Positions 14,941 through 55,693 of a DNA stretch of 64,000 bases are shown here, in pieces. A model generated the notes under the pieces. The model saw only the letters and a program-made list of their open reading frames with translations, did not search any database and had not been told where the DNA came from. Made by a program: the position numbers and the translations under genes. Within the stretch, counting starts at the first letter, position 1. Each line of letters begins with the position of its first letter. The DNA is from Paraspadella gotoi (lineage: Eukaryota > Animalia > Chaetognatha), in assembly GCA_051294375.1 (NCBI GenBank), contig CM119266.1, positions 17,354,087-17,418,086 of the forward strand. Direction: 5' to 3'.

Positions 14941-14994
14941 AAACTTGTAAAGGTCGACAACTTAACTTTTTAAACCAGAAATCCTGTGACTAGG

Positions 14995-15259
14995 ATTCGG
15001 GCTTACCAGTATGGACAAGGCACTAAGTGGGCTGAAGACTACTATACCTATTTTTTGAGCCCCTTCAGCAGCAATGGAGCCAGGCTTGAGGGTTTTCCAG
15101 ACCCCCAAAGGGGTTTACAACCATCCTCACCCTTCAAGCATCGAAGGTACCATTGGGTATCAATCCCGGTACCTATTGGTCATGAGCTGTTGGTTTTACT
15201 CAATGAGTCACCGTGTAATGCCTATAAGTTGGGTGAACTTATAGCAATGCCCGACTACA
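14995..15259 (-). mobile_element. Copy of tRNA-containing LTR (15010-15259) followed by a PBS-like TGGTAAGCCC
   Basis: Starts TGTAGTCGGGCATTGC on the minus strand and carries the tRNA-like A/B boxes. Homologous to 41601-41884 but lacks the internal P4-like hairpin. Confidence 0.65.
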
Positions 15260-28200: not shown

Positions 28201-31200
28201 TGTATGGTGTTTCTGATTTTTATAATTTAATAAATTTATTTTTAAATCTTCTAAGTTTTAATATTTTACTCTCCTTAAGTTTACCCTTTTTTCATGTTTC
28301 CCTTAAACGATAAATCCTCCCTTTACATCTAACTTACCCACCTTCCTACTCCATCAGGCAGTCGGCAGCGACGACCGCCTGGACCTGACCCACCTCTACA
28401 AACACCAGAGGGATCAGCGGAGGAGGAGGCTGTGCTCGAGCGAGTCTATCCGCGAGAGAACACCAAATCAAAAAGTTGCTGGAGCACATGGAGGAAGAAA
28501 AGAAGAAGCTCAAATGCTCCTTTAAGGTGAAAAAGATATATCTTTTTGTATGTATGTCCATCCGTCAGTCTATTTGCCTTACTTTGTTTCTCTCCATTAT
28601 TTCTCTTTTCACTTCTCTCTCTCATCTTTCAGGATAAAAACTTAAATCTTATTTGCATATAGAAGTATAGAACATTTTATTGTGAAATATAGGTTACATC
28701 AAGAAAAAATCATAGATAAGAAAAACCTGCAGTCTTTAAAATANNNNNNNNNNNNNNNNNNNNNNNNNTAATCCCTTAGACGAGAATCTCGCTTAAAAAA
28801 AAATTCAACTATTTTTTCTAATAGGGAATTCCGTTCAAATCTGACTAACCCAAATTTTGCAAACGCGTTTTGCCAGAATTCGGTTTAAAAACACTTGTAT
28901 TAAAACCACACGGATTCCCTGAGAGCGTTACATCTGAAGGACTTGTCCTATTCATTTTAGTGGCATTTGATAAAGGATTTAATATCAAACAAAGCCAGGG
29001 GAAATGCAACTATCATCTCCGAGGAATTTTCAAACCTCATTTTTACTATAGAAATGAAAGGGAAAGTTTACCAAACTTAAAATTGCAAACAGGGATTGCT
29101 ATATGTTCCTGTTACATGTACGTCGACTGTCGATTTCGGCGATTCTGATAGCTTTGTGTCTTGAAGAGCTAGTCCATTTTCTTTTTTATTCTTTATGAAT
29201 GATTTGACATAAAATATCAGTTTAAATTGAAATAGTCCGGTTTGAATCGGCGAAATTTTTATTTAAAAAGAAATAATATAAGGAAGGTTTGAGAAAAAAA
29301 CGATTTTTCCTAATATCTTTTGAAAGAATAAAGATTAAAGGGATTGGTAATTAGTACCAAAATGAGAAGCCATAATCATAGGGCACATACAAGATACAAT
29401 TTTAGAATTTACTTATCGAAAACCTCCTTACAGTGTGAGTGTCAAACTAAGTCAAAATTAAATGAATTTAAAACTAATTGACACCCCATAAGAATAAATG
29501 AAAATTTAATCTTTTTATATATGTTTCTGAAAGAAAAAAGCCTAAATTGTACTCCTAGTAAAACTTTTTAAAGTTTTTTTGGATAAAGGAAAATTGTGGA
29601 TTTTTTGTCACTTAAATATTTGCTTGTCTGATTTTACAAGCAGTGCTACAAAATTCTACAAAATATTATTCACCCCATCACAGCCCGTAAGTATTTATCT
29701 TTCTTTCCACCAGCAAAAGTTAAACATTATTTTATGCTTAGGATTAACAGGGTATGTTTACTGAAAATGAGCCGGAAGGACATTCAACTTCTTCGACTTT
29801 ACTGTCATTTTTCAATAATAAAAATAGGTGCGAAATTTTTAATTATTTTAACTGCTCATACAGCTTCACAAGGACATACTTCATAAGATATCCCAAGTGT
29901 TAATGTAATTTATATATATTTTTTTACAGAATCATAAAATAACAGAAAGTTGTGTGATTCCTTCGCTCATTTAAGAAAAAAAATAATAACTACGGGAGAT
30001 TATAAGAGTTTGTAAGAGAAGTCAGAATCGTGCGAAAATCTTAAAGGCAGTGATTTTGATTGTGTATTTTCAACAATGAATATTGAAAACTTAATAACTA
30101 TTATTTCTTTTTTCCACTGATAAATATTGAAACACTCTTTTCTTTAAAAAAACGGTTTGGGCTATAGTTATCTCTCCTCTTATAAACATAAGATCTCACT
30201 GGTCGTGAACTTTCTTGCTTTCATATATACGGTAAGGAACATGATTTCTTTTTACGACAATCATTTCTAATTACGGTATCTGACATAAACTAAAGATTTG
30301 GGGGGCGAACTAAAAACGATTTTTTTCACCGGTAAGGGGAACTTTTTTAAAGATTAAATTGCTCGTCAGATCTATCCGTTTTTTAGATTACTACTCGCTT
30401 AGGCAAACCAATGGCACGGTATATTTTAAATCGTTTCCTTTTTTTATCCACTATTTTTTTCTTCTCTTGAACCTTCTCTCTTCGTCTCTTTCTTTTTCTC
30501 TCTGTTCTTTTCTCTCCCTTCTCATACTTTTCTGTCCTCACGATTTCTTCTGTGTCATCCCTTCTTTCTTCCTTAACCTTATTTTCCCCTTCCTCTCATC
30601 GTCTTTTTTTTCTCTCCCTCTCTGATTCTCTTTCCTAACCCTGTTTTTATCTTTTCTTTTCTCTCAATTGTCCTCGTTTTCCCTCCCTCTCCCCATATAT
30701 TAATTCCTTTCCAATTCTTTTTCCCTCTCCCTTCAATTTTTTTTCACCCTTCTCTCTCTTCTCTCATTCTCTCCTCATTACATCCTCTCACAATGTTAAG
30801 AAAGAAAAATCTAGGTTGGTAGTGTGTATGATTTTAGCGGAAGCTTGGTTGCCAGCCACGATTTTAAAATAAATCGACAGATTTTTGGAAATTTTTCCGC
30901 AAAAACCTGTTTCGATTGAGAGAATATTAATCTGCTGACGTTCCCCTTTCAATAAAATGGAAGCGTTTTTTTTAATTCGTCAACTTTAGTATGTTTCTCA
31001 GCTATTAAAAACTTATTAAAAATAAGTCAAAAACCGAGTTTTAGTTTTCAAATTAAAACAGCAGCCTCACAAATCCCTCACAAATTAAAAGTAGGCTTTA
31101 AAAAATATTTTTTTTCAGCTTTAAAGTGAGTTAACACTAGTTGCTTTCTGAAGAGTCCTAATTTTCTAGTTAGCGGTACTAGAGCTATGCGAAGCATATG

Positions 31201-34200
31201 ATTTTGATATCATTATTAGTATATTGTGGATCATTTGAGTATATGTTTCGTGGTATACAAAGTAGAAAATGTAATAAATGATTTGTGCGTGGATTATGGC
31301 GTATATTGATGAAGAGAGTGTATATTTCATAGCAAACAGATAGCATGATACATCAAGTGAAGCAACTCAGATGGTAAAAGAAGATAAGAAGGACACGAAA
31401 GCCAGAAGTAAAAAATGTTTCTTCAGATGTATCTTGCAGTTCAAACTCAAGACAAAGTCAAAATGGAAAAATATGGACATCCAATTGTGTTTTATTAAAA
31501 GTAGCAAAAATGTCAGTGATTCTTAATTAGAAAAGCAGCAGGGATGATTTTCAACTTAATCCGTTAAGTTGTCTAGCCAATCTTTGTCTTAGAGTTAAAA
31601 TTTATCATTTGTGGAATATTACATAAACAAATTTGAAAAAAGTGGTTTTTTGCCTAAATTCTAGTATAAGAAAACATCACTTGCTCTAAGAAGCGAGAAT
31701 GTTTGTGAAAAAAATGGTGGGATTTTGGTTCATGGGGTTCCTAAGATTCTCTACATGTGAGGTCCGATTAGAAGCGAAACTATTGAATTAACGAAGATTC
31801 CCGTCACCCTCCACATCTAGTCTGGATATTAAAAATATAAGAAAAAATCACTGGCTTCTATTTTCTATAGCGGTGCCTAAATTCCCTACCGCCTGATCTT
31901 TAAGCTACTCCCTAACCCTAAATTTTTTTAATTCCAAAATTAAAAATGTTTTGGAAAATTTATCCCTATTTAAAATCACTACAAGTACTTTAACCCCATC
32001 CATTTTTTAATTCTCATCATCATCTTAAATTTCCTTTTTTTAAATTTAATTACATAACTTTAATCTTTATCCCTTCAACTCCAGCTCTGGTCACGACACC
32101 AACGAGAATCTCGTGCTGGAGTTCTACGTCACCCCAGATGGTTCTGATCGCAATGATGACTCCGCATGGAACTTCACGTTTGGAACGAGGCCTGGTGTAA
32201 AAGAGGGATCTACCAGGCGGGTTGGATGGCTGGCAGGTGAGAGAGAGCGAGTTTGTAGATCCGTCTCCCCCGCCCCACTTTTAACATCTTTTCATCCAAC
32301 TCTCCCAAACTCAACAGGCCTTCGACGCAACCCCGCAAGAATACTCTGACGGCCTTATGCGATGCGGTCCGGCTTCAGTCGCTGACAATCAAAGAAGGAA
32401 AAGTTCAAATTCCCTCATGACGCAAAATTCATTTCGCTGAAGTCAATGGAACCAGGATTTACTACACGTGCACTTGCGAGTACAAGTGGTTAGTTCCATG
32501 ATGTTGAGGCTGGAGATGGTGAGGGATGATGAGGTTGATTTTTATGCTGTGGTTCCTGCTATTGCTGTACACAACACTGATTTATAGGTTGATTGGTCGT
32601 TGTCTCTATCTAATTATATGGTTAAATACCTAGTACACTCGTCTCAGATAAAAGTAGTTTGATTCGGTTGTAACTTGGAGATTAAGAGTATCTAGATACG
32701 TTTGTTGTAATCAAGTTTTACATCAATGCGTTATAATAGCTTATATTATGTAGATAAAAATAAAATAATGCAAAAAGTAAATGAATTAAATAAAACAAAA
32801 TATTATTTAAAATGAAATTCTTGAATCCAAAATTCCACAGGTTCCGCCACAATGGACCCCACAAGGTCATCAAGGTCGACTCCAAATCCATTGGGAAAAA
32901 AATCAGCACCAAGGTAGAAACGCAATTCGTTAAATACTATTGAAAATGATAACAATAAAAGAATATCTTAAAAGCCCAAATTTGGTCGAATTGATTTTAA
33001 GTAAATATTTACTTTTCTGATTTGTCATTGTTTTCATTCTTTATTTTTTTGTATGGTGTTTCTGATTTTTATAATTTAATAAATTTATTTTTAATCTTCT
33101 AAGTTTTAATATTTTACTCTCCTTAAGTTTACCCTTTTTTCATGTTTCCCTTAAACGATAAATCCTCCCTTTACATCTAACTTACCCACCTTCCTTACTC
33201 CATCAGGCAGTCGGCAGCGACGACCGCCTGGACCTGACCCACCTCTACAAACACCCAGAGGGATCAGCGGAGGAGGAGGCTGTGCTCGAGCGAGTCTATC
33301 CGCGAGAGAACCACCACATCAAAAAGTTGCTGGAGCACATGGAGGAAGAAAAGAAGAAGCTCAAATGCTCCTTTAAGGTGAAAAAGATATATCTTTTTGT
33401 ATGTATGTCCATCCGTCAGTCTATTTGCCTTACTTTGTTTCTCTCCATTATTTCTCTTTTCACTTCTCTCTCTCATCTTTCAGGATAAAAACTTAAATCT
33501 TATTTGCATATAGAAGTATAGAACATTTTATTGTGAAATATAGGTTACATCAAGAAAAAAATCATAGATAAGAAAAACCTGCAGCTAAGGGAAACCCAGT
33601 GATCCGAGGGGCGGTAAAAGTGCTGAATCATGTAACGTAGTCCTTCAAACTCCCCCGATCCCAAAAAGTGGTAATTCCTTTTTTTCTCTAGTTCAATGGG
33701 ACAAGTGCGTCAAAAAAATTCCCATGTGTTAAGCTCCCCCCGATTTTTGTTTAAAAATTCGCGTAAGGGGCAAATCTTTTCCAAGTTTTATCTTTTTTTT
33801 TCACGTAAAGATGTATAGAATTTTCTTTTTTGTTTCCAACTTTACACTAAAAGATTAATTCTTGAAAGTCGACAATCGAGTAAACAAATGACTTAGAACA
33901 AAACGAGGACCAAAAAACCGAAGATTGCAAAAAAGTCGTCGACACAAGTACTAACTCCGGCGACAATGACGACAAAACGAAAATAACGAAAAAAGTTCTG
34001 TTAGAAGAGACGAAAAAGACAAAAGCGATTACCCCCAATAAGTGACCGAAAACAACGGCGTAAGACAAAAAAATTTGACAACAAACGACAAACAACGACA
34101 AAGACGTCCCCACGAAAATGATAAGACAAAACAAACAAAACAAAAAACGATGATGAAAGGCAATAACAAACTACACAACAACGACGACGACGAAGACGAC

Positions 34201-37200
34201 AACCAAAAACCATAAACAACAAAGACGATGACAAAAACACAACAAAGACGACGACAACGACGAAGAGACGACAAAAAGCGAGAGGCAAAGACAAAGACGA
34301 AAAACGGAAGGCGAAAACCATGACAAATACGACGAAATTTCTTCTGGAACCTTCTTTATGAACTGAAACGAACTGTCAGCAATCCAAAGAAAAAATAAAG
34401 GAAAAAAGTAAAAAAAAAAGAGAGAAAGAAGGAAAGAGAAAAAAGAAAAAAGAAAGAAAGAAAAGAAAGAGAAGAAAAAAGAAAAGAAAGAAAAAAACAA
34501 CAAAACAAGATATGAAGCAATAAAGCAAAAAAAAGAAACAATTGAAGCAAACAATGCCGGCATCTGCTCACGATTATTAAGGCGTAATTAATTAATTAGT
34601 TAAAAGATTATTTAATAATTGTTTTTAATTCTGTTCGTCAGGTCATTGAGCACGCACAAAAGCTAACGAGCGACGACGTCATAAGCGTGACGACAGATTA
34701 ACATCGACGCATGATTAATTGAATAAATTCATTCTAATCTTTTAATAGATTATTTAATGATGATTGATAATGATTAATTGATTGGCTTAATTGATCTAAT
34801 TAATTATTAAAGGAATTATTAATAATGCTAGACATTTACATAAAAAGCATAATCAAACTAGTGAAACCACGTGTTTTTGTTTTATTTTTCCATTTAAACT
34901 CATTTCCACGAACCGGACGATTCGTGATCGCAACTTGAGATTCCTCTTATTCACACACTTCTTACACACACAAAGAATTTCAAGTCCAACATCGCCCCAT
35001 CCACACGAGTAATTGGCGTTCAAAGCGAAGGGGGACTGGATGAACACGACGGTAACTGAACGGACCATACGTAACATAGAATTTCAATATAATTCGCCAT
35101 GTTCTCTAAGAGATATATAAGTGACTATTTTCAACCATCCCTATAATGTAAGGCGACGACAGACGACAAAGTGAAAAAACGAAGAAAAAAGGAAGGAGAG
35201 AGAGAGAGAAGAGAGAGATAGATAGATAATTGTAACATGGACCTATGTTACCTTGCTGCAAAGAGACCTATAAGACGGGTAACAGTGGGTCCGTTCATTT
35301 AAATTCCTTTAAAAGGTTTAGAAATAAGTCTACCAATCAATAATCTGCTAAAAGGTCGATAACTAATCATAAGTTAGTACTCAATTACAAAAAAACGGAA
35401 AAATTGTCGCCTTATATAACCTACGAGCTAACCGGCAAAAATGATATCATATTTAAAATAAAACACCATGAGAAATTAAAGTAATTAGTCTGGAACATTT
35501 GCATCGTTCTAGAATTCGTGTCCAGGATTGATGGATCTGGATGATTGTGAGGTCTCTTTCCCTTATTTTGGGACAAATCCCCAATAACTTTCTGTTGTGT
35601 TTTGACGATGTGTATGAATAATTCCTGGTTTTCGGCTCTTGTTTTAATGGGTTTCTGAAGCTTATTTCGGCCAATGCGCTCGATACACGCCCGCTTTCTG
35701 TTTGTTGAGAATTTGCAGAAACGTTTTACCAGCTTCTACTGAATCATGGATCATCTTTTGCAATGAACTCCAGCTTCCCTCGAGTCAAGGTATGCTGAGG
35801 GGATTAGTTTAGTGATTAGTGTTTGGGATTAGGGTTAGGGACCAGGGTTTTGATTTAGGGGCTTGGGTTAGATATAAGAGATTATGGTTATAACTTGGAT
35901 GAGGCACTGGGTAATAGATTAAGGTTAGAAATTATGTTAAAATCGAACGTGAAAAAGGTGTCGAGGTTAAATTTTGAATTATGAGAGAATTGATTGTATT
36001 ATGTAAATAAATAAGGTTGCAAGGTTGTGAGGAAATTGTAATGAAGTTTACAATACCAATAATTTAAATATCTTTTCACGTCTCATATTAACTCAATTCA
36101 TCCCACCAATTATGCCCACTTTGCCCACCGATACTCCCACGTAAATCCTTTTTCCCTCCTTCACCTGAAATTCGTTACGCTCCTGCAAGGAATACCCAAG
36201 GCTCGGCAGACGGTGGTGACCACGGCTGAGAAGACCCAACATTGGGCCCACTTGACGGGATGCCCCTCCTTGAGCCAAAGTTCGAGGATCCTGCCAGATC
36301 CGACCCAACTCCAAGGGCGAGGGTGGTTGCCATAGTCACCGCCCCACTTTCCGGCCAAAACGCCTTTTTAAATAATATTTTTAAAAAGGGGGGGGGGAAA
36401 GTGAAATTAAGTCTTCTGAAAAAAAGTATAAATTCAATTATATTGGGATGAATAACTTAAAAATTAATTACTTAAAAATAATTTGTGAAAAACTTAAATT
36501 AAATTAGGTTTAGTGAATAATCTAAATGGAATTCTATTTCGTGAGATTTTTCTACCCTTATTTTCCTCAATGGATTTACCGTCTCTCCCCTTACCTTTCC
36601 TCACCAGACTATCTTCTCCCTCCCATTTCCCTGTCACGCCATGCCATGCCCTGCTCACCATTATCCCGATCCTCTCCGTTGACCATCTGACTGACAAATC
36701 TCAAAACCTCCACCACGTCGGATCTCGTGTCGAAGACATCGAGACGGCCGATGATCTTAAAGGCGGCTTCGTAGCAGGACCTCTCGAACTGGGCGAAGTT
36801 CCAAGGGCGTGCCCAGGGTTTCCACCTTGTTGGGAAAGAATACAGGTGGTAGAGAGACGGATTAGAGAAGGAATAGAGAAGGAATAGAGAGGCTGACACG
36901 GTATAGAGAAGAGAGAGAGAAGGCATCGAGAAAAAATGGAGACCGAATAGAGACGGGATCAATAACTTGGTTGTCAATCAATCTTTAGGAGCCAATCATC
37001 ACCAATCATCACTGCAAATCCCATCGCCGCCTTTTTGGTTTCTCACCGTGTGCCGCAATAGACTTTTCCCGAGTCGTTGAGGACGAAATTCATTCGTTCT
37101 TCTTCGTTGTCCAGGAAGACGTCGTCATCGGACACCAAGGGTTGAAGAAGAAGGAACCACTTGGTGAGTAGTCTTTGAGAAGAGACCAGCCTAAGGAGAT

Positions 37201-40200
37201 CGGGGACGAGAGCGTTGGAAATGATTGAAGGGATGAAAAGTAAAAAAAATTATTATGAAATTGGTACAACCATTATAAAAATTATCCATTCATTCAATAA
37301 AATAAGCTATCTTGCCCATGACTTTGGACAGGCTTTGGTGGTTTAAGGTATTTTTAAGGTTTTTTTGTTATTAAAAAGGTGTTGCCTGATTGGTTTATGT
37401 AATGATAGAAAGGTGCATAAACAGTCGGGAACGAAAAGAGAGAGATTATTGAAAACTAAAACTCGTTTTGACTTATTTATAAGTTTTAATAGCTGAGAAA
37501 ACATACTAAAGTTGACGAATTAAAAAAAAACAGCCTTCTTTATTTGAAAGAGGGAACGTCAGCAGATTAAATTTCTCTCAATCGACAGGTTTTTGCGGAA
37601 AAAATTTCCCAAAAATCTGTCGATTTATTTTAAAATCTGCTGGCAACCAACTTCCGCTAAAATCATACCACTACCAACCTAGATTTTTTCTTACAATTGT
37701 GAGAATGAAAAAAGATGAGAGAAGAGAGAGAAGGGTGAAAAAAAAAATTGAAGGGAGAGGGAAAAAGAATTGGAAAGAATTAATATATGGGGAGAGGGAG
37801 GGAAACGAAGAACAATTGAGAGAAAAGAAAAGATAAGAAACAGGGTTAGGAAAGAGAATCAGAGAGGGAAGAAAAAAAAGAGATGAGAGGAAGGGGAAAA
37901 TAAATGGTTAAAGGAAAAAGAAGGGATGACACAGAAGAAATACGTGAGGACAGAAAAAGTATGAGAAGGGAGAGAATAAGAACAGAGAGAAAAAGAAAAG
38001 AGACAGAGAGAAGGTTCAAGAGAAGAAAAAAAATATGATAAAAAAAGGAAAACAGATTTAAAATATACCGTGCCATTGGTTTGCCTAAGGAGTAGTAATC
38101 TAAAAACGGATAGAATCTGACGAGCAATTTAATCTTTAAAAAAGTTCCCCTTACCGTGAAAAAATCGTTTTTAGTTACCCCCCCCCCCCCCCAAAAATCA
38201 TCTTAGTTTATGTCAGAATACCGTAATTAGAATGATTGTCGTAAAAGAAATCAATGTCTTACCGTATATATGAAAGCAAAGAAATTCACACCATGAGATT
38301 CTTATGTTATAAAGGAGAGAATAACTATAGCCAATAACCGTTTTTTTTAAAGAAAAGAGTGTTTCAATATTTATCAGTGGAAAAAAAGAAATATAAGTTA
38401 TTTAAGTTTCAATATTCATTGTTGAAAATACCGCAATCAAAAATCCACTGCCTTTAAGATTTTCGCACGATTCCTGACTTCCTCTTACAAAACTTATAAT
38501 TCCCGTAAGTTAATTTTTTTTCTTAAATGAGCGAAGGAATCCACAACTTTCTGTTATTTTATGATTCTGGGTAAAAAATAATATAAATTACAATTAACAT
38601 TGGGATATTATGAAAGTATGTCCTTGTGAAGCTGTAGAGTTAAAATAATTAAAAATTCGCCTATTTTATTATTGAAAAAATGAAGTAAAGTGAAGAAGTT
38701 GAATGTCTTCCGGCTCATTTCAGTAAACATACCCTGTTAATCTAAGCATAAAATAATGTTTATACTTTTGCTGGTGGAAAAAAGAAAGATAAATACTTAC
38801 GGGCTGTGATGGGGTGAATAATTATTTGTAGAATTTGTAAAGCATGCCTTGTAAAAATCAGACAAGCAATATTTAAGTGACAAAAAATTCCACAAATTTT
38901 TCCTTTATCCAAAAAAAACTTTAAAAAGTTTTACTAGAGTACAATTAGGCCTTTTTTCTTTCCAAGAATACATTTAAAAAGAAATTAAATTTTCATTTAT
39001 TCCTTTATGGGGTGTCAATTAGTTTTAATTCCAATTATAATTTTTGACTTAAGTTTGACACTCACAGCTGTAAGGAGGTTTCAGATAAGTAAATTCCTAA
39101 AATTGTATCTTGTATGTGCCCTAATGATTAATGGCTTCCATTTTGGTACTATTACCATCCCTTTAAATCTTTATTCTTTCAAAAAGATATTAGGAAAAAT
39201 CAGTTTTTTTCTCAACCTTACCTTTTATTTCTTTTTAAAATAAAAAATTTCGCGGATTCAAAACCGAGACTATTTCAATTTAAACCTGAATCATTTTATG
39301 TCAAAATCATTATAAAAATTGAAAAAAGAAAAATAGGAACAAGCTCTTCAAAGACACAAAGCTATCAGATTCGCCGAAAATTCGAAGTCGCGCTCATGTA
39401 ACAGGAACATATAGCAAAATCCCGTTTGCAATTTTTAAGTTTGTAAACTTTCCCTTTCATTTCTATAGTAAAAAATGAGGGTTTGAAAATTCTCGGAGAT
39501 GAGTAGTTGCATTTCCCTGCTTGTTTGATATTAAATCCTTTACAAATGCCACTAAAATGAATAGGACAAGCCTTCAGAATGTAACGCTCCCGAACCCGTG
39601 TGTTTTAATACAAGTGTTTTTAAACCGAATTCTGGCAAAACGCGTTTGCAAAATTTGGGTAGTCAGATTTGAACGGAATTCCTATTAGAAAAAATAGTTG
39701 AATTTTTTTTTAAGGCGAGATTCTCGTCTAAGGGATTAGTTTAGTGATTAGTGTTTGGGATTAGGGTTTAGGGACCAGGGTTTTGATTTAGGGGCTTGGG
39801 TTAGATTTATTAGAGATTTATGGTTATAACACTTGGATGAGGCACTGGGTAATAGATTAAGGTTAGAAATTATGTTAAAATCGAACGTGGAAAAAGGTGT
39901 CAGAGGTTAAATTTTGAAATTAGAGAGAATTGATTGTAATTATGTAACATAAATAAGGTTGCAAGGTTGTGAGAAATTGTAATGAAGTTTACCAATCACC
40001 AATAATTTAAATATCTTTTTCAAGGTCTCAATATAACTCAATTCATCCACAACCAATTATGCCCACTTTGGCCCACCGATTACACCCAACGTAAAATCCT
40101 TTTATCCCTCCTTCACCTGAAATTCGTTACGCTCCTGCAAGGAATACCTCAAGGCCGTTCAGACGGTGGTGAAACCACGGCTGAGAAGACCCAACATTGG

Positions 40201-43200
40201 GCCACTTGACGGATGCCCCTCATGAGCCAAAGTTCGAGGAAATCCTGCCAGATCCGACCCAACTTCCAAGGGCGAGGGTGTTAGCACATAGTCAACCGCC
40301 CCACTTTCCCGGCCAAAAACGCCTTTTTAAATAATATTTTTAAAAAGGGGGGGGAAAGTGAAAGTAAGTCTTCTGAAAAAAAAAAGTATAACAATCAATT
40401 ATAATTGGGATGAATAACTTAAAATTAATGACTTAAAAAATAATTTGTGAAAAAAACTTAAATTAAAATTAGGTTTAGATGGAATAATCTAATGGAATTC
40501 CTATTCGTGAGATTTTTTACCCTTAATTTCCTCAATGATATACGTTCTCCCCTACCTTTCCTCACACAGACTATCTCTCCCTCCCATTTCCCTGTCACAC
40601 AGCCATGCATGCCCTCGCTCACCATTATCCCGATCCATTCTCCCGTTGACCATCTACTGAACCAAATATCAAAACCCTCCACCACGTCGGATCTCGGTCG
40701 AAGACATCGAGACGGCCGATGAATCTTAAAGGCGGCTTCGTAGCAGAACCTCTCGAACTGGGCGAAAGTTCCAAGGGCGTGCCCAGGGTTTCCCACTGTT
40801 TGGGAAAGAAACAGGTGGTAGAAGAGAGCGGAATTAGAGAAAGGAATAGAAGAAGGAATAGAGAGGCTGACCACGGTATAGAGAAGAAGAGAGAAGGGCA
40901 TCGAGAAAAATGGAGACCGAATAGAGACGGGATCATAAACTTGGTTGTAATCAATCTTTAGGGAGCCAAATCATCACCAATCATCACTGCAAATCCATCG
41001 CCGCTTTTTGGTTTCTCACCGTGTGCCACGCCAATAGGACTTTTCCCGGAGTCGTTGAGGACGAATTCATTTCGTCTTCTTCGGTTGTCCAGAAGACGTC
41101 GTCATCGGAACACCAAGGGTTGAAGTAAGAGGAAACCAACTTGGTGGAGTAGTCTTTGAGAGAGACCACAGCCCTAAAGGAGATCGGGACGAGAAGCGTT
41201 GGAAATGATTTGAAGGGATGAAAAGTAAAAAAAAATTATTATGAAATTGGTACAAACCATTATAAAAATTATCCATTCATTCAATAAATAAGCTATCTTG
41301 CCCATGACTTTGGACAGGCTTTTGGTGGTTTAAGGTATTTTAAAGGTTTATTTTGTTATTAAAAAAGGTGTTGCATGATATGGTTTAATGTAATGATAGA
41401 AAGGTGCATAACACAGTCGGAACGTAAAGTTAAGAAAGGTAGTCACTTTTGTGTTTGTGAAATGTAATGTAATTGTTTACTACGTTTTTGAAAATGTTAA
41501 TGAAATACAATACACTGATATANNNNNNNNNNNNNNNNNNNNNNNNNTAACTGATATAAAATAATGTTAATAATAACTTTGATAATGCTAATAATAAAAT
41601 TGTGGATAAGGCGCTAAGTGGGCTGAAGATGACTATCCGCAACTTCTTCAACCCCTCTAGCAGCCATGGAACGGGTCCTGGGCTTGGAACCAGGCTTGAG
41701 GGTTTTCCACGCCCCCAAGGCGGCTTACGGCCGTCCTCATGCTTCCCGCAGGGTAGGTACCGGGTTGGGATTGAACCCAGTACCTAGTGGTCATGAGTAG
41801 ATGGCTTTACTCAATGAACCACCGCGTCACAACTGAAGGTGTCATGCTTATAGGCGGGGTGAATTTAGGCAATGCCCGACTACATGCCCCCCAGATTGTA
41901 ACCCACCCTGCACTGCTTCCAGTAGAGGGAGGGGAGCAATCTTCAGCACATCCATGGGCCTGGAATCAGAAGGTTGGAATACGCTCGACAGGATGGGCTC
42001 ACCAGTGTGGATAAGGCTCTATAGGTGCTTATAAGTGGGGTTAACTTATGCAATGCCCGACTACAAAATGATGTTTTTAGTACTTTTATTAATAATCTTA
42101 CCATTTTAATAATTACCAATATTGAATTACCAATATTATTATGTAGAAATATTATTATTACTGATATTGCCATAGTCGTTGAACTTACCTTCGTACAAAT
42201 CCTCGTCGTCGTTTAGGTCATCGACTTTTTGTGTCCAAATCTCGAACTTGACGTCGTATTTGCTGACGGCTGCGTTGACGGGGACCACAACCTCAAAGTC
42301 GGTCCATTTGTCGTTGTTGTGATCGGTGACCCGTTTGAGACGCCAATCAAAATCGTCGCCCTCATCGTCCTCCTGAAAAAAAAAGGGAGAAAGAGGGAAG
42401 CAAATCAATTTCATTGATTGATTGATTTCTCACTAAACCAACCATATGAACATGATTTTTGCATAACTACACAAAGTACACATCCATGAAGCTCTCCCTT
42501 TTGGCAAACAATCAAATCAATTAATCATTCATTCAATATATGATCATTAAGGTGGGATAAAATGAAACACTTTTTATAACATGTAAATCTCTCAAAAAAA
42601 TTTCTTTTTTCCTTTTACTACTAAATCGATTTTTATTTAAATTTTTTGAAATAGTTCATTGGGTTGTTACACTGAAGCTTTTAAATATTTATTAATATAA
42701 AAAAAAGTTTAATTTTTTTAAGAACGGATTCTGATAAAGCTTAAAAAGTTAAATATAAGTTAGTCCTATATTTATTTAAACTTTTTACAATAAAATGGTT
42801 AAAAATTTAAAAAACCTTAAAAAATTATAATCAATCATCATTGGCTGAATTTATGATTTTTTTATCATTTGAATTTATCATCTGTTAATGAATTAATCAA
42901 TCTATACAATCAACCAATCAATCCAATCACCTCAATTGAAATGAAGCTTCCCCTGAACCGACTGACTGCGTCGGCGTCGCTTTGCAACGTCACCCACAGC
43001 GAAGATCTTTCTTCTTTAAGCATCGAAGTCGAGACGCGAAATTGAAAAGACTTGTCCGCGACGAGAGAAGATCGCCTGAAGAGGAGTTGGGAGTGGTGGG
43101 GAAAGTGAGGGGGAGTGGATGGGGTTGTGGAGTAAAAGGTGGGGTGATGGACGGAGAGGGCAAGGGCGTGGGAAGAGAGGATGGTTTTATTCTGTTGGAT

Positions 43201-44070
43201 TAAAAATATTGTTTTGTTTCAGTTTAAAAAAAAATAAAATTGAAAGTAAAGGTGGGGAGGGAAAGTGGAGAAATTCAATACCAAATGACAACGCTAATCA
43301 GCGTCGATTTTGAAAAAAAAAGAATAAATTATTAACAATTACACTAACTGAACTATAGGCGCATAATCAACAATAATCGACTCCAATTAAATAGAAAAAA
43401 GTAACGACAACTTATAATAGCGACAATCAACAACAATCAACTACTAACAACGATCAACAGCAACTAACAACAGCAACCGCAATCCACAAACGGCTACAGC
43501 AAACAGCTCCTATAGCAAATCAGCAGCTAAAGCAATCAAAACAGCAATCGAAAACAACAGCAATTAACAGCAGTAACAGCCTTCACCAACAGCAGGATAA
43601 ACAAAAAGCATCCACTGCATCAACCTGTGGATAATCCTCCGGATTCTCGTATCCTTTCGTTCGATGAAGGAAACGATTCGTCATCTTACGGAGATCGAGC
43701 CAATCGGGCAGACGGTTGCCGCTCATGTCGGTCGCATCGTCGACAGCGGCGGGTGTGCGGGGATCGCGGCGAGAAGCGGCTCCAGAGACGACGTCGGAGA
43801 AGAGACGCGATGGTCGAACGCGACGCCAGCGGGGATCGCGTAGGGTTCGTAGCGAGAGCCATGTCGGAAAAAAGGAAGGAGGAGGAAGTATCTGGGGGGG
43901 AGAGAGAGGGGAGAGGGGAGAGAGAGAGAAGGTAGAAAGAGAGGGAGGAGGGAGAAAAGAGAGGGAAGGGGAGGAGGAAGGGAGGGGAAAGAAAAGAAAG
44001 AGGAGTAAAGAAGAGAGGATTGGCAGGGAAGAGATAAAATGAGAAGGCGAGAGAGGGAGGAGACGGAAAT

Positions 44071-44101
<31 letters not shown>

Positions 44102-44102
44102 C

Positions 44103-44138
<36 letters not shown>

Positions 44139-47100
44139 AACAAGAAAGGAATAAGGAAAAGGAAGAGGTTTATCAGTTATGAATTTGAATATATAATTTT
44201 AATGTATAATGTATAATTATAATGTATAAGGTACGATTCAAATAGTTAATAAATCGGACATTGCGGAGGTTCGCCCCGCGTCTTTCTCTCCGTTGTGACC
44301 CGGTGGCTCATTGAGTAAAGCATTCAGCTTATTGCTCCTAGGTTGCGGGTTCAATCCCAACCCAGAGTCTACCCTGTGGGAAGCGTAAAGACTACCGTAA
44401 GTAATCTGGAAAGATCTGTAATCTTTAAAGCTCGGGAAACGTTTTGTAGTTGCGACAGGGGGTTAAAAAAAGATAAGGAAAGTCCTATTTAGCCTACTTA
44501 GTACTATTACCCCTCGAGCAGCTAAAAACAGGTCCTGGGCTTGGAAGGTCTCAATGCCCGGAAGGCAGTTTACGGTCGTGCCAACACTTTACATATGACA
44601 GGAAATGGGTTGGGACTGGACCCGTTTCCTACTTGTGGTCATAAGCAGACATCTTCACTAAATTAGCCAACCGGGTCACGAGGAAATGAGGGCGGAGTAA
44701 ACCTATTTCCGAGGCAATTCCCATTACAGCGAGTTTCTTTAACGAAGGAATTGTAAAAAAAAATTGTTATTTAATAAAAACGAAATTTAAAATTTTTTAT
44801 TTGAATATTCCATCTGCGAAAATCCGTTGAAAAAACCCCAAGTTGATAAATGAGAGAATTCGCGCCAAATTCAAGTTTTGAATAAAAAAGGGCGGGACTT
44901 GAAATGAAAAGAAAATGAAAAGAAATCTGGTTTTTCAGGTCGGAATGCGAATCTTAATCTTGACAAGATCCGACAGGTTGAGATGTGGCATTACAGGGAT
45001 GACTGGATGAAGCATTACTGGATGTGGCAGGTCGGGATCGGGCACAACATGATCAAGTATGAAAAGATAAGGCATGACGGAATCAGGCGTGACAGGGTCA
45101 TGCATTACTGAATTNNNNNNNNNNTGAAAATATTGTTTTGTTTCAGTTCTAAAAGAAAATAAAATTGAAGTAAAGGTGGGGAGGGAAAGTGGAGAAATTC
45201 AATACCAAAATGACAACGCTAATCAGCGTCGATGTTTGAAAAAAAAAAGTTATAAATTATTAACAATTAGCACTAACTGAACTATGGGCATAATCAACAA
45301 TAATCGACTCCAATTAATAGCAAAAAGTAACGACAACTATAAATAGCGACAATCAACAACAATCAACTACTATCAACGATCAACAGCAACTAACAACAGC
45401 AACCGCAATCCACAACGGCTACAGCAAACAGCTCCTATAGCAATCAGCAGCTAAAGCAATCAATAACAGCAATCGAAAACAACAGCAATTAACAGCAGTA
45501 ACAGCCTTCACCAACAGTAAAAAAAAAAAAAAATAACATTCCATGTCAGATCCTGCGCCCCTCCGCCCCTACCATGTCACGCCTGATTCTGTCATGCCTT
45601 TTGTCGCCCTGCCCTAACTGTCTAGCCTCTTTCCGTCATGCCTAATTCAGTAATGCATGACCCTGTCACGCCTGATTCCGTCATGCCTTATCTTTTCATA
45701 CTTGATCATGTTCGTGCCCGATCCCGACCTGCCACATCCAGTAATGCTTCATCCAGTCATCCCTGTAATGCCACATCTCAACCTGTCGGATCTTGTCAAG
45801 ATTAAGATTCGCATTCCGACCTGAAAAACCAGATTTCTTTTCATTTTCTTTTCATTTCAAGTCCCGCCCTTTTTTATTCAAAACTTGAATTTGGCGCGAA
45901 TTCTCTCATTTATCAACTTGGGCTTTTTTCAACGGATTTGAGATGAATATTCAAATAAAAAATTTAAAATTTCGTTTTTATTAAATAACAATTTTTTTTT
46001 ACAATTCCTTCGTTAAAGAAACTCGCTGTAATGGGAATTGCCTCGGAAATAGGTTTACTCCGCCCTCATTTCCTCGTGACCCGGTTGGCTAATTTAGTGA
46101 AGATGTCTGCTTATGACCACAAGTAGGAAACGGGTCCAGTCCCAACCCATTTCCTGTCATATGTAAAGTGTTGGCACGACCGTAAACTGCCTTCCGGGCA
46201 TTGAGACCTTCCAAGCCCAGGACCTGTTTTTAGCTGCTCGAGGGGTAATAGTACTAAGTAGGCTAAATAGGACTTTCCTTATCTTTTTTAACCCCCTGTC
46301 GCAACTACAAAACGTTTCCCGAGCTTTAAAGATTACAGATCTTTCCAGATTACTTACGGTAGTCTTTACGCTTCCCACAGGGTAGACTCTGGGTTGGGAT
46401 TGAACCCGCAACCTAGGAGCAATAAGCTGAATGCTTTACTCAATGAGCCACCGGGTCACAACGGAGAGAAAGACGCGGGGCGAACCTCCGCAATGTCCGA
46501 TTCATAACTTTGTCTCGGACCTAAAGTCATGGTTCCTCCACCAAGTTTTATCGATGTTGTAAATGTCTTTATTCTTATCACTCAAGTTTTTGGATTAATA
46601 CTTTATACATTTAAAATTATATATTTAAAATTCATAACTGATAAACTCTCTCTCCTTTTCCTTATTTCCTCGTCTCTTTCTCTCTCTCTCTATTTCCGTC
46701 TCCTCCCTCTCCTCGCCTTCTCAATTTTATCTCTTCCCTGCCAATCCTCTCTTCTTTACTCCTTTTCTTTTCTTTCCCCTTACTCCCTTACCCTCCTCCC
46801 CTTCCCTCTCTTTCTCCCTTCCTCTTTTTCTCTTTCTACCCTTCTCTCTCTCCCCCCCAGATACTTCTTCCTCCTCCTTTCCCGACATGGCCTCTCGCTA
46901 CGAACCCTACGCGATCCCCGCTCGGCGTCGCGTTCGACCATCGCGTCTCTTCGCCGACGTCGTCTCTGGAGCCGCTTCTGCCGAGTCCTCCGCCACCGCC
47001 GCTGTCGACGATGCGACCGACATGACGGGCAACCGTCTGCCCGATTGGCTCGATCTCCGTAAGATGACGAATCGTTTCCTTCATCGAACGAAAGGATACG

Positions 47101-50100
47101 AGAATCCGGAGGATTATCCACAGGTTGATGCAGTGGAATGCTCTTATTGTTTGATCCTGCTGTTGGTGAAGGCTGTTACTGCTGTTAATTGCTGTTGTTG
47201 TTTTCGATTGCTGTTTTTGATTGCTTTAGCTGCTTTTTGCTGTAGGAGCTGTTTGCTGTAGCTGTTGTGGATTGCGTTTGCTGTTGTTAGTTGCTGTTGA
47301 TCGTTGATAGTAGTTGATTGTTGTTGATTTGATGGTCGCTATTTATAATTGTCGTTACTTTTTGCTATTAATTGGAGTCGATTATTGTTGATTATCGCTA
47401 TGCTATAGTTCAGTTAGTGATAATTGTTAATAATTTATATCTTTTTTTTCAAAGATCGACGCTGATTAGCNNNNNNNNNNNNNNNNNNNNNNNNNNNNNN
47501 NNNNNNNNNNNNNNNNNNNNNNNNNNNNNNNNNNNNNNNNNNNNNNNNNNNNNNNNNNNNNNNNNNNNNNNNNNNNNNNNNNNNNNNNNNNNNNNNNNNN
47601 NNNNNNNNNNNNNNNNNNNNNNNNTTCTTTTTCTCTTTCTACCCCTTCTCTCTCTCCCCCCCAGATACTTCTTCCTCCTCCTTTCCCGACATGGCCTCTC
47701 GCTACGAACCCTACGCGATCCCCGCTCGGCGTCGCGTTCGACCATCGCGTCTCTTCGCCGACGTCGTCTCTGGAGCCGCTTCTGCCGAGTCCTCCGCACA
47801 CCGCCGCTGTCGACGATGCGACCGACATGACGGGCAACCGTCTGCCCGATTGGCTCGTCTCCGTAAGATGACGAATCGTTTCCTTCATCGAACGAAAGGA
47901 TACGAGAATCCGGAGGATTATCCACAGGTTGATGCAGTGGAATGCTTCTTATTGTTTGATCCTGCTGTACCGGCGAAATCTTGTTCGATGAAATCTCGTG
48001 CGGGGAGATCTCGTACGCCGAAATGTCGCAAGGCGATATTTCTTGATAAAAACCGGTTAACCGGTTTTCGTCGGTTATTTTTTTTTTTTTTTCATCTAGG
48101 AACCGAAACATACTATAACGAAACCAAAATAATTGAGATTAATTAATCATTAATCAATAATCATTAATCATTAATCAAGGAAGTTTAATAAAATCTATAT
48201 TGAGAATAAATTTAAAACTACTTTAAAATTTTAGCTTTATATAAACGACAAAAGAAACTGTTAAAAACATAGCATATTCAGCAGGAGTAGTTTTAAATAT
48301 CAGCTTCAATTTTTTGTTTATTCTTCATTTTTTATTCTTTTTTCGCTAAATTTTACGGCACAAATTTGAAGTTAAACATATATTTACACTTACATTTAAA
48401 AGGTAAAAACCGAAAAAATAAAATACAAATTTGTTTATTCATAATATTCGGTATATCATAATTAACTCACCCATGAGATTTGCTGCGTGCATGGTTTAAC
48501 GTTTAAAATTATTCGGTCGAAAGAAATAAAAAGGAAAATAAAAAAAAGGTTTGGACAAATTTTGTCGACGCCTTTTTAAATCAATGATCGAGCGACAAGT
48601 TGTGTAGTAGTCGTCGTCGTCGTCGTCGTTCTCCGATGTTGTCGTCGCTTTTGCTGTTTATCTTTTTTTTTCAATCTTTGGCAGCCAAATAAAAGGGTAC
48701 CAGGATACAGGACCTGTATTACAGGATAGGATATTGTCGTACTTGTAATTTAAAATAGATCGGTAATTGAAATCTTTTTTTTTATAACAAGGGTTCAGAA
48801 TAAACGGAATGAGTTAGGAGGAAATTAACATTCCATCAATATTAGTCATGAGACGGCGAAATATTTTTATTTTAAAATTCTTAACTGCCGAAAGGAACAA
48901 ATAATTTCTTTAAACTTAAATATTGCATCAGAGAGACAAGTAGGAAAGAGTTATCAGCACGAGATGAAGTATCGGCTGCTAATTCTTTTCTCTTTTATTG
49001 GGTGAGAACAGCGTCCTTGTAAGGACACTGAAACTGTATCTGCGTTGGGCCGCGCGGTTCTCCTTCGCGTTTTGGATCGCAAAAATGTGAGCTTCTTCAT
49101 TGGCCCTGGATTGGCTGCCTTTGACCAATCGACGACGAGAGTTTCGAGAAGATAATTTTACCTTTTTTTTTTCCGGCGAATTTAGCGCGAGGTCGACGAG
49201 GAAACGCGTTGGCCGGGGCTTTATTGAAACGCTTTGATCTTGCCCCTTGGACGGCCTACCGTTTCCGAAACCAGCGTTTTATTTTGTAATTGCCTATGGT
49301 TCTCTCTTGGTGCGCGGCTTTTACTTGTTTTTATTCCGTTTTTATAATTTTTTTTTGTTCTGGTTATATTCGTTTCGTGCCCTTTTTGATGCATTACATT
49401 ATTTTACGCTTACCCTCGGAATCGTGTCCGAAATATTTAGTTCTCGTCAGCGCAAGATCAAACGGAAACATCTATGAATGGAAAAATAATATCGCTTACT
49501 CCCTCTCATTTTATTTCGGATTTAAATTGAATCTTAATTTAATTTCTGAAATTTTTATTTTTTTTAATGCAGCCCCAACTTCCTTTACATGCGAAAACGA
49601 AATTGATTTTTTTAAACTTGTACGCTGTGTGAGAATTATCTTAGCGCATTTTAACTGTGTTGGCGTCGAAATTTAGAGATGAAAACAATTTTTCGCCGTC
49701 GTTGTCATCGTACAGCTGGATTTAATTCGATCAAAGTCTTAGAACCTCAGTGTAGATTCTTTATCCAAACAAGGAAATAAAAAAAAATACTCGAGACTGT
49801 TTGCGGCGTTAGCCTTTTTTTCGAGAATCAAACAAAAGTTTACCACAAGGCTCAATTTATAATTTTAAAATGAGCCAAATGAATAACAAACCGAACTATT
49901 TTAAGTATTTCATAAATTTTATTTTAACTGGACAACGACCACAACGACAACGACCACAACGAAGATGAAGTCGAAAAAAGGGACGTTAATGTTTTGAACT
50001 TGAGACACGACGACGAGAAAGACGACGACGACAAGAAGCGCGCCCGTGGAATAAAATGGAATCGGCCAATCACTGACCGAGCAATTTTCCTCTGCTTCCC

Positions 50101-54841: not shown

Positions 54842-55601
54842 AGCTTAAAGACTTGAAACCACGTGAACACCTGAACAGTCTCATTCAGAGAGATGTAGTA
54901 TGGACTGTCAAACACAGAGAGACAGACAGATCTGCAGATGGAAAGGCAGACAAGAGAGACAGACTGAAAGTCAAAAAGTAAAGCAGACAGACTGAGAGAA
55001 CAAAGAACAGACGGACGGACCTGAATGTGCGGCATCCTTGTCAACGCCTTTAAATCGCCGACGCCGAAGAGACAGACTTCGTTCCTTGCGACGCCTGACG
55101 CACAGGCAACGTCGAACGGGGCCGAGGCGTCATTAGCGGCGCTGTCATTGATAATCGGCGCCATTTTGGAAAAGTCGTTTTTCGGAATCCATTTGACAAA
55201 GATGACGGGGAAGAAAGTGGAGTGAAGGGCGTGGGCTAGGGGTGAGCCGCCAGGAGCACTAAGAGCCAAGAAAGGAGTTTAAATAAATTAAGTTTTTTCG
55301 CTTGGCTTGGTGACCACTGACCATCTGACAATGTTTACACATAAAAAAGTCACTATTTCGCATGTTGCCTTCCTCTTCCAACTTTTTCACCTCAGTCCAG
55401 CGTCGTAGTTCAGCGTCGCCCAAAAGAATTCGTCAGGGATTATTGTTTCTCGAAGCCACAACCGGAAGTCACGTGACCTAACGTCATTGAGCGCGAAATC
55501 AATGAAGGAGCGAGTGTAGGCGCCATATTGTGTTCCCTTTTGGAGGAAAGGGAGAGAGATGGAGAAAGAGTGGAAGAGAAAGATATAATGAGATAGAAGG
55601 A

Positions 55602-55693
<92 letters not shown>

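Follow-up and report, generated by a model that had tools for sequence, protein, structure and literature searches.

The element between 41597 and 42069, on the minus strand of the window (the whole 64,000-nucleotide stretch that was analysed), is best explained as a damaged copy of a repeated, non-coding miniature LTR element with a tRNA-derived module and a twister-like fold in its LTR. In this explanation, which is given a probability of roughly 0.4, full members would be transcribed by Pol III, cut in both LTRs, circularised and copied by a Gypsy partner. The LTR carries a predicted twister-like ribozyme fold, which the first-pass annotation overlooked. That annotation had proposed an animal, tRNA-based analogue of plant elements with Pol III promoters in their LTRs. 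The kind of element is correct but is not new: TRIMs of animals whose LTRs are tRNA-like and whose target-site duplications (TSDs) measure 4 bp are already published under the name Helenus/TRIMp3 (Kojima 2024, PMC10886601). The features of the element, in minus-strand order, and of its relatives in the window are as follows.

42066-42069, minus strand: upstream 4-bp flank ATTT, a candidate TSD (sequence match of the flanks)
42006-42065, minus strand: 60-bp TG...CA repeat, a 5' LTR remnant with both ends of the long LTR and with the tRNA and ribozyme-like parts deleted
41885-42005, minus strand: 121-bp non-coding internal region (no Pfam match; repeated in four runs), which begins with one C and includes this spacer base, the PBS and the PPT
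41995-42004, minus strand: candidate PBS-like TGGTGAGCCC, 1 nt behind the LTR (position and sequence)
41885-41892, minus strand: short PPT-like run GGGGGGCA adjoining the 3' LTR (sequence; joint seen in other contigs)
41601-41884, minus strand: full 3' LTR, 284 bp, TG...CA (each terminus marked by sharp loose ends in four runs)
41760-41826, minus strand: tRNA-derived segment (A/B box pair, tRNA profile match)
41677-41741, minus strand: type-P5 twister-like fold (conserved blocks, descriptor, Rfam comparison)
41613-41661, minus strand: long imperfect hairpin at the 3' end of the LTR (predicted fold)
41597-41600, minus strand: downstream 4-bp flank ATTT, a candidate TSD (sequence match of the flanks)
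14999-15259, minus strand: older relative, with an LTR at 15259-15010 and a PBS-like sequence at 15008-14999, then truncated (70% identical, L4 loop deleted)
44254-44466, plus strand: diverged unit in which a leader and A/B boxes are present and the twister blocks are decayed; its duplicate lies near 46290-46500 on the minus strand
44467-44728, minus strand: second diverged unit with a TG start, in which UAA, GC and the L4 loop are retained; its duplicate lies near 46026-46290 on the plus strand
50640-50736, minus strand: short, very decayed family fragment (weak BLAST match, E 0.086)

The order of parts in the first-pass annotation (60-bp repeat, single nucleotide, PBS, 121 bp, PPT, 284-bp repeat and AAAT flanks) is confirmed at these positions. 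The ATTT flanks, AAAT on the plus strand, are identical; the caution that they might agree by chance retains some force, with a chance of about 3% in these AT-rich flanks and a single TSD locus. The element is 465 bp long at this locus, and a full member would measure 689 bp. The five frames that overlap it contain no Pfam matches. No empty paralogous site for the element is found, and the duplicated segment ends at 41429. Elsewhere in the window, proteins of molluscs, crustaceans, chelicerates, insects and annelids are similarly close to the transglutaminase exons (about 45-60% identity), and a protein search with an ODC-like exon gives no match; by these exons the host is placed no more closely than as an invertebrate-like animal.

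The 60-bp repeat matches the first 40 nt of the long LTR with 5 mismatches and its last 12 nt with none; there are 4 mismatches across the last 20 nt. From these matches it is identified as a 5' LTR with an internal deletion, from which the tRNA part and the ribozyme-like part are gone. This deletion was missed by the first-pass annotation. The 60-bp repeat occurs only at single-copy depth, and its deletion junction is crossed by contigs at flank depth in runs X1 and X4. An origin of the repeat as the ancestral LTR, before the SINE insertion that would mark the birth of Helenus, is unsupported: the junction-crossing pieces are at flank depth, among the 32 of 905 pieces listed. With the promoter and the ribozyme gone from its 5' LTR, the copy described here is most likely dead.

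The relative at 15259-15010 was correctly described as a further copy followed by a PBS-like sequence. It ends in TA instead of CA, followed by C and TGGTAAGCCC, and its P2 is fully paired. Two diverged units, on opposite strands and arranged tail to tail, make up the sequence at 44254-44730, which was previously taken as a single copy; a duplicated segment carries this sequence again at about 46026-46500. The twister motif is decayed in all three relatives within the window.

Evidence from other copies comes from contigs of four public runs (X1, X4, X5 and X9), which represent at most four samples and three studies, one of them possibly the source of the window itself; X9 may be an RNA run. 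Three biofilm-metagenome runs with small shares lie outside this set. The family is highly repeated, with fixed ends at 41601 and 41884 in all four runs. Contigs with flanks before 41601 number 109, 105, 47 and 22 in X1, X4, X5 and X9, and those with flanks behind 41884 number 100, 105, 38 and 25. Outside the fixed ends, the contig flanks are AT-rich and unlike each other (agreement 0.38-0.43), and no SINE-type tail is present at these ends in contigs of the four runs. The internal region is repeated in all four runs. The long-LTR/PBS and PPT/LTR junctions are found in contigs of other copies, so that the paired-LTR layout holds at the family level from junction contigs; no single contig spans the whole element. 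The PBS-like sequence at 41995-42004 has no variant among the family polymorphisms listed. Two metagenome scans, one with the LTR start and one with the L4 loop and downstream block, give 0 matches. The fixed ends, the two junctions and the tRNA-like sequence support the earlier interpretation as a non-autonomous LTR element with a tRNA-derived module, whose Pol III function is predicted.

Within the long LTR, an A box (41821-41810), a CAT loop and a B box (41776-41768) are present, in agreement with the first description. By shuffling, 0.08 matches to the A/B box pair at 41821-41768 are expected per window. A profile of 41 phage tRNAs has its best window match at 41826-41760 (nhmmer, E 3.9e-4, profile positions 3-69 of 76), and the best E in the reversed-window control is 0.33. 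ARAGORN and Rfam find no tRNA, and 41760-41826 contains no cloverleaf. In the predicted fold, the B box is placed within a 13-bp hairpin. A leader of 56 nt lies upstream of the tRNA part. The motif GGTTC is present, TRGCY is one base off in this LTR and present in the unit at 44304, and YGG, found in most but not all Helenus (PMC10886601), is absent; the A box here ends in GAG. The tRNA origin of this segment holds at the sequence level. The PBS-like sequence begins with TGG one base behind the LTR. Its best match (9/10) is the end of a bee tRNA-Trp printed in Fig. S2 of PMC10886601, and no tRNA end printed in that figure matches perfectly. Self-priming was rejected, as the longest complement of the PBS within its own LTR is only 5 nt.

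The blocks of a type-P5 twister are all present, in order, just behind the tRNA part, the catalytic A and G included. On the minus strand, these are P2' (41741-41739), GAGGA (41738-41734), a palindromic P1 region of 6 nt (41733-41728), UAA (41727-41725), P2 (41724-41722), GC (41721-41720), P3 (41719-41695) and P4/L4 (41694-41677). The predicted cut falls between 41727 and 41726. Both pseudoknots are complementary (UCC/GGA and GC/GC) and P4 is paired. One descriptor, composed after the motif had been seen, is matched by the LTR and by 71 distinct phage motifs; its strict form is passed by 0 of 200,000 LTR shuffles and a looser form by 10. The 18-nt P4/L4 string of the LTR is exact in six viral loci, four of which are Rfam Twister-P5 above gathering. 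When 20 phage motif loci were submitted to Rfam, 19 were above the Twister-P5 gathering threshold. Among the 71 phage motifs, 33 have a 3-nt P2, 14 have a linker of at least 13 nt, and 26 share the GAGGA/UUCC pseudoknot pair of the LTR. A profile built from 62 phage motifs matches 41735-41678 (E 0.0024; reversed control 0.18); its training pattern is partly derived from the window, so it is given no weight. Among the 40 of 56 variants listed, family polymorphisms affect 0 of 50 core positions. The P3 loop, by comparison, is polymorphic at 3 of 9 positions (p 0.003), and the other positions at 19 of 234 (p 0.022). This contig-based test excludes the six positions of P2, of which 2 are polymorphic; with P2 included, the difference is weak (2/56 vs 17/228, same listed variants).

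Several features count against the twister-like fold. The LTR scores 16.8 bits against the Rfam Twister-P5 model (RF02684), with a gathering threshold of 37.6, and only model positions 38-58 of 58 are matched. Phage twisters with a P3 score 42-55 bits and pass as controls, and therefore the failure of the LTR is real. The shortfall is due to the 6-nt palindromic P1 and to the poor pairing of P2. With its 6 nt and at most one pair, the P1 region of the LTR does not close as a hairpin; in 70 of the 71 phage motifs this region measures at least 14 nt. In the window copy, P2 has one wobble and two mismatches, of which only one mismatch is private to this copy. In favour of the fold, imperfections of P1 and P2 are tolerated in natural twisters and those of the pseudoknots or catalytic bases are not (available text of PMC11662667). 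In the predicted minimum-energy fold, single or two-strand, GAGG and P2 are buried in another hairpin. Across the window, Rfam gives 0 matches at gathering, and Rfam scans of the element and window find no hammerhead. BLAST of the LTR against phages returns only four chance matches. A type-P1 twister formed with a downstream GAGGG was also rejected: it has a gap of 5 nt ahead of the catalytic G and does not pass the strict descriptor.

Nearly as likely as the best explanation is an ordinary Helenus-type TRIM, with a Pol III transcript, long terminal redundancy and normal strand transfer, in which the twister-like fold is a relic of a captured SINE or retroelement tail and is non-cutting or structural only. 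All of the LTR-like features and the tRNA similarity fit such an element, as do the Rfam failure, the 6-nt P1, the weak P2 and the competing hairpin. Like Helenus (311-1263 bp), the element is a TRIM of less than 1 kb with an A/B-box, tRNA-like sequence in the LTR, TG...CA ends, a PBS-like sequence, a PPT, a non-functional tRNA and many more LTRs than internal parts (PMC10886601). The candidate TSD, here at one locus only, has the 4-bp length found in animal Helenus (PMC10886601), and the short PPT-like run resembles the G-run ends of Helenus internal parts printed in the available material of PMC10886601. Kojima proposes that Helenus arose when a SINE was inserted into an LTR (PMC10886601), and twisters are known at RTE 5' ends. 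In contrast to Helenus, the LTR here carries a twister-like fold; the word "twister" is absent from the text of PMC10886601, and four L4-loop strings are absent from the available part of its supplement. Unlike several Helenus LTRs printed there, this LTR has no T-run behind the B box, and its PBS is outside those in Fig. S2. Of six family strings, five are absent from Data S1 of PMC10886601, in a search blind to strings split across lines, and the sixth is a chance match in an internal region. Against a relic, the catalytic bases are preserved, as are both pseudoknots, and the listed variants spare the 50 core positions, which is not readily expected of a long-dead sequence. The UAA, GC and L4 blocks also persist in a unit only 67% identical to the LTR.

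It is unlikely that the fold is active on linear RNA, where, in the 5' LTR, it would trim off the tRNA head or, in the 3' LTR, define the 3' end, with normal strand transfer and no circle. The element contains no TTTT, so its LTR is without a T-run terminator; in Schistosoma Perere-3, retroelement 5' ends are defined by twisters (available text of PMC8501958), and a slow ribozyme could cut at one site only. A full element, however, has the motif in both LTRs, and the palindromic P1 would favour joint cutting. Less probable again is a non-autonomous derivative of a Penelope-like element (PLE; Naiad) with a tRNA head, in which the repeats are pseudo-LTRs and the PBS, PPT and TSD occur by chance. 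The available text of PMC8557442 describes partial tandem and inverted repeats in such insertions, as at 44254-44728, and non-autonomous PLE derivatives that were previously mistaken for LTR elements. Here the position of each end is constant to the base in four runs, whereas PLE copies are mostly 5'-truncated. The TG...CA ends, the TGG one base behind the LTR and the G-run adjoining the 3' LTR also disagree with this origin, and the short repeat retains both ends without the middle and is not a partial tandem copy. Two further readings, an assembly artefact and the chance placement of an ordinary tRNA SINE amid LTR-like scraps, are largely refuted already: the window assembly is fragmented (10 N gaps and duplicated segments) and the TSD may be fortuitous, but a 56-nt leader precedes the tRNA part, a point that the first-pass annotation raised in separating the element from SINEs, the ends are fixed without a tail, and the junctions recur in other copies, with the deletion junction in contigs of two samples.

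The preferred reading, a tRNA-promoted LTR element that passes through a circle, has a more specific form that is put forward tentatively. It would be an animal LTR retrozyme with a tRNA (Pol III) promoter and a twister in each LTR, whose palindromic P1 would confine ribozyme activity to transcripts in which the two LTRs pair with each other; a 405-nt circle, copied by a Gypsy partner, would thus come from complete elements only. Pol III transcription would begin in the 5' LTR, at its tRNA part, and read through, because the sense strand of the element is without TTTT. Pol III activity of the tRNA-in-LTR design still needs validation (Kojima 2024, PMC10886601). The 6-nt P1 palindrome would form no normal hairpin but would allow pairing between the two LTR copies of a transcript (predicted self-duplex, -10.7 kcal/mol). 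Paired in this way, the two LTRs would act as a swapped double ribozyme, with a cut in each at U/AA. This pairing needs two LTRs, and solo-LTR transcripts would therefore stay uncut. The released 405-nt piece (LTR and internal region) would be ligated into a circle because it is without a terminal repeat. A host tRNA would prime at the PBS, and the reverse transcriptase of the partner would run round the circle and restore both LTRs and the promoter. Integrase insertion would then produce the 4-bp duplication.

The circle route has a precedent in plant LTR retrozymes (available text of PMC4918200 and PMC7761336). Like these, the element is non-coding, with a self-cleaving motif in each LTR of about 300 bp (here a twister-like sequence only), a PBS (here PBS-like), a PPT, a 4-bp TSD (here a candidate) and a presumed Gypsy partner. 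The plant elements contain type III hammerheads and use tRNA-Met, and their cleavage and circles are shown, whereas the element here is from an animal, is twister-like with a tRNA-type promoter, and is described from sequence (same sources). Metazoan retrozymes are stated to lack LTR, PBS and PPT in the accessible part of PMC7761336. The block order, UAA, GAGGA and GC are those of the type-P5 twister (RF02684) and the T-variant twisters of Schistosoma Perere-3, and the P4/L4 loop is identical to those of Sma-1-119 and of Rfam-passing phage twisters (PMC8501958, available text). Unlike those twisters, the motif here has a 6-nt palindromic P1 and a weak P2, is below Rfam gathering, and lies within an LTR behind a promoter and not at a LINE 5' end (PMC8501958, same portion). 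Cassandra and Ajax also have a Pol III module inside a TRIM LTR (PMC10886601); theirs is derived from 5S rRNA, with no ribozyme reported in PMC10886601, and the module here is derived from tRNA.

In the literature searched, with most subscription papers, Repbase and Dfam outside its scope, no paper that places a twister inside a TRIM or other LTR element is found. If true, a twister in a tRNA-LTR would join Helenus and retrozymes, two lines known separately, and would carry the LTR-retrozyme cycle beyond plants and hammerheads, into animals and twisters. A twister that depends on two copies would parallel double hammerheads. The problem of a ribozyme behind an internal promoter has been noted for SINEs (Kojima 2018). 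The preferred reading, if true, would explain how such a ribozyme can persist without loss of the element: the promoter would be recopied from the 3' LTR, which is impossible for a SINE.

The minus-strand layout claimed by the first-pass annotation, with two repeats, a PBS-like site, a 121-bp internal region and 4-bp flanks, is present as described:

Directly before the 60-bp repeat, minus strand: upstream 4-bp flank ATTT
42065-42006, minus strand: 60-bp TG...CA repeat, then a single C
42004-41995, minus strand: PBS-like site, TGGTGAGCCC
Minus strand: internal region, 121 bp in all, ending in GGGGGGCA (PPT)
41884-41601, minus strand: 284-bp TG...CA repeat (long LTR), then ATTT

The 60-bp repeat combines 40 nt from the start of the long repeat (5 mismatches) with 20 nt from its end (4 mismatches); the final 12 nt match perfectly. 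The 4-bp flank match, for the single TSD examined, has a chance probability of approximately 3%. The element is intronic: on one side is a splice-bounded exon (42372-42189), and on the other are transglutaminase-like exons (41136-41071 and 40256-40119). A single contig from run X9 covers 42188-42374 alone.

Transglutaminase-like genes occur on both strands at 32175-43218, and the exon at 40316-40080 is seemingly frameshifted relative to its duplicate (36367-36164). Large duplicated segments with 89-91% identity, some inverted, lie beside N gaps (28769-31051 / 37449-39738, 35800-37438 / 39732-41429 and 43293-45114 / 45644-47470). These would be either uncollapsed haplotypes or local gene duplication. 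The window also contains palindromic MITE-like repeats (17561-18337, 52468-52547, 56316-56483) and another family of dispersed repeats, present in at least six copies (14470-14946, 26787-26997, 37248-37348, 41234-41335, 50789-50921, 56008-56203). A second, unrelated tRNA-derived repeat, probably a SINE, is found at 1715-1811 (+) and 10219-10128 (-), with 98% identity. A search with the first exon at 565-765 (-), which we take to be ornithine-decarboxylase-like, returned no match. The region 55387-57302 (-) has a match below cut-off to Pfam Branch (E 0.001), suggesting a Core-2/I-branching glycosyltransferase.

The family was followed in Logan contigs from 4 of 12 public sequencing runs (X1, X4, X5 and X9), representing at most four samples and three studies, one possibly the window's own source. 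The X1 set comprises 7,251 aligned contigs. Summed depth, which is not equal to copy number, reaches 1.5-5.6e5 on the long repeat and 3.9-7.6e4 on the internal region, compared with 18 on the flank. The family is highly repeated, with LTR sequence in large excess over internal sequence. In X1, X4, X5 and X9, respectively, 109, 105, 47 and 22 contigs break exactly before 41601, and 100, 105, 38 and 25 break exactly behind 41884; at both ends the flanks are AT-rich and unlike one another. Flank agreement beyond both LTR ends is 0.38-0.43 across the four runs. The family ends are fixed at these breaks, with no variable SINE-type tail.

Contig junctions in other copies show the long repeat running at its 3' end into the PBS, with loose ends behind 42015-42021, and the PPT running into the LTR start. 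Among the best 32 of 905 pieces, those that span the junction of the 60-bp repeat do so at flank depth, in X1 and X4. The family layout is therefore long LTR, PBS, internal region, PPT, long LTR, from which we infer a full member of 689 bp. The paired repeats first proposed for this locus hold at the family level; in this copy, the 5' LTR (42065-42006) is a deleted form. The element is not young, since its 3' LTR departs from more than 85% of contig depth at 10 or more positions.

The tRNA-derived module proposed within the LTR is borne out by paired A and B boxes at 41821-41768, a combination for which shuffling predicts 0.08 matches per window, and by a tRNA profile built from 41 phage tRNAs (42 found, one dropped for a bad character). 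The best profile match in the 64 kb is 41826-41760 (E 3.9e-4), compared with 0.33 in the reversed window. The box pair is also present in the diverged 44304 unit (44254..44466, +) and its duplicate. ARAGORN and the Rfam tRNA model find no tRNA in the element, and the predicted fold of this part contains no cloverleaf, which points to a promoter relic rather than a tRNA gene. TTTT is absent from the sense strand, so Pol III read-through could be possible, though by itself this absence is a weak indication. Between the PBS and the bee tRNA-Trp end in Fig. S2 of PMC10886601, 9 of 10 bases agree; against the element's own LTR, the PBS gives no match (5 nt at best). The B box sits within a long hairpin (41786-41754) that is retained with compensatory changes in a diverged unit (44622-44590).

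The LTR also contains a twister-like fold, which the sequence-only annotation missed. Rfam gives a partial, weak match to Twister-P5 at 41698-41678, with 16.8 bits (E 0.17) against a gathering score of 37.6. The 18-nt stem-loop of the LTR is found exactly at six viral loci, four of which are Twister-P5 above gathering. The block order in those loci is P2', GAGGA, P1, UAA, P2, GC, linker and P4/L4, and the order is identical in the LTR from 41741 to 41677, where the linker holds an 8-bp P3 hairpin. The labels P1-P5 and L4 and the catalytic roles follow, in part, PMC8501958 and PMC11662667.

Two pattern scans returned 75 viral loci and, with the first six, 71 distinct phage motifs. A 3-nt P2 occurs in 33 of the 71 and a long linker in 14. 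The pseudoknot pair of the LTR (GAGGA/UUCC) occurs in 26, GAGGG/UCCC in 42 and mixed pairs in 3. Nineteen of 20 phage loci submitted to Rfam pass Twister-P5 gathering. One descriptor, composed after the motif was seen, fits both the LTR and the 71 phage motifs; none of 200,000 LTR shuffles fits it, and 10 fit a looser one. Several phage contigs (labels L020, L024/L025/L065, L026/L027/L028/L072, L037 and L063/L064) contain two to four type-P5 twisters lying within a few kb.

Among the best 40 of 56 rows, family polymorphisms fall at 0/50 core positions compared with 3/9 P3-loop positions (p 0.003) and 19/234 non-core positions (p 0.022); this test left out six P2 positions, and counting them gives 2/56 compared with 17/228, a weak contrast. 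The 67%-identical unit at 44728-44467 (-) retains UAA, GC and the L4 loop, and P2 is paired throughout in the older relative at 15259-15010 (-). The motif is nevertheless decayed in all three relatives within the window. The LTR P1 region is 6 nt, compared with at least 14 nt in 70 of 71 phage motifs. The LTR P2 contains a wobble pair and two mismatches, just one mismatch being private to the copy at 41601-41884. The predicted LTR fold sequesters GAGG and P2 in a different hairpin. Because phage twisters with a P3 reach 42-55 bits, the presence of P3 cannot account for the low LTR score. Given the short P1, poor P2, low score, competing hairpin and decayed relatives, the motif is best regarded as twister-like and outside RF02684. 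In favour of the motif, an assay of more than 2,600 natural twisters shows good tolerance of imperfections in P1 and P2, but not of those in the pseudoknots or catalytic bases (PMC11662667), a comparison that presumes relevance to P5-type forms.

The 6 nt of the P1 region form a palindrome, with a self-duplex energy of -10.7 kcal/mol. Pairing between two LTR copies would place GAGGA of one opposite UAA of the other and give two swapped ribozymes, and one transcript of a full element would supply both copies. Cleavage in both LTRs would release a piece of 284 + 121 = 405 nt without terminal redundancy, which could be circularised and copied round the circle from the PBS, as in plant retrozymes. 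Animal hammerheads with a weak helix cleave as dimers (PMC7761336), and plant retrozymes overcome the lack of terminal redundancy by circularisation and copying from the PBS (PMC4918200). We put the proposed route for this family at roughly 40%. An ordinary Helenus element (a TRIM with tRNA-like LTR sequence) carrying a relic ribozyme is a realistic, if tentative, alternative. Linear trimming of the RNA by the ribozyme is unlikely. A Penelope-like derivative is improbable, as a 5'-truncating element is not expected to give exact ends at 41601/41884. Craig et al. 2021 (PMC8557442) report that Naiads have no canonical hammerheads. The same exact breaks argue against a variable-tailed SINE, and a SINE or artefact is very improbable.

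The LTR 3' hairpin and the PBS that follows it (41661-41601 and 42005-41990, -) resemble a second, degenerate twister. This stretch has a 4-bp P2, GAGGG, a hairpin and GC, and the PBS is similar to the P4/L4 loop with three or four bases missing; UAA and the pseudoknot CC are absent. If this twister is real, a ribozyme could be the source of the 'PBS'; alternatively, the stretch may be a mere long hairpin. The arms of a small hairpin in the LTR leader (41868-41850, 42049-42031 and 15243-15223, -) co-vary between copies. The 60-bp repeat has the states of the 15259 copy, whereas its own 3' LTR differs, which may mean that this locus combines repeats of different subfamilies.

Helenus elements are TRIMs with tRNA-derived LTR sequence from fungi, one plant and six animal phyla, and those of animals have 4-bp TSDs and Gypsy-type PBSs (Kojima 2024, PMC10886601). 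The animal tRNA-type TRIM analogue first suggested fits the definition of a TRIM with tRNA-derived LTR sequence and is of a kind already published there. Family-specific strings are not in Data S1 of PMC10886601, where line breaks may conceal a string, and the family is thus probably undescribed. A 2020 review (PMC7761336) and a 2026 preprint assign LTR retrozymes to plants and non-LTR retrozymes to animals. Known plant LTR retrozymes bear hammerheads (PMC4918200, PMC7761336), whereas the fold here is twister-like. Twisters are reported at RTE 5' ends (PMC8501958), whereas this fold lies inside an LTR. The literature search found no paper on a twister within an LTR element, although preprint supplements might contain such elements. 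Helenus, plant LTR retrozymes and RTE twisters are each already known; the new part would be a twister-like fold in a Helenus-type LTR.
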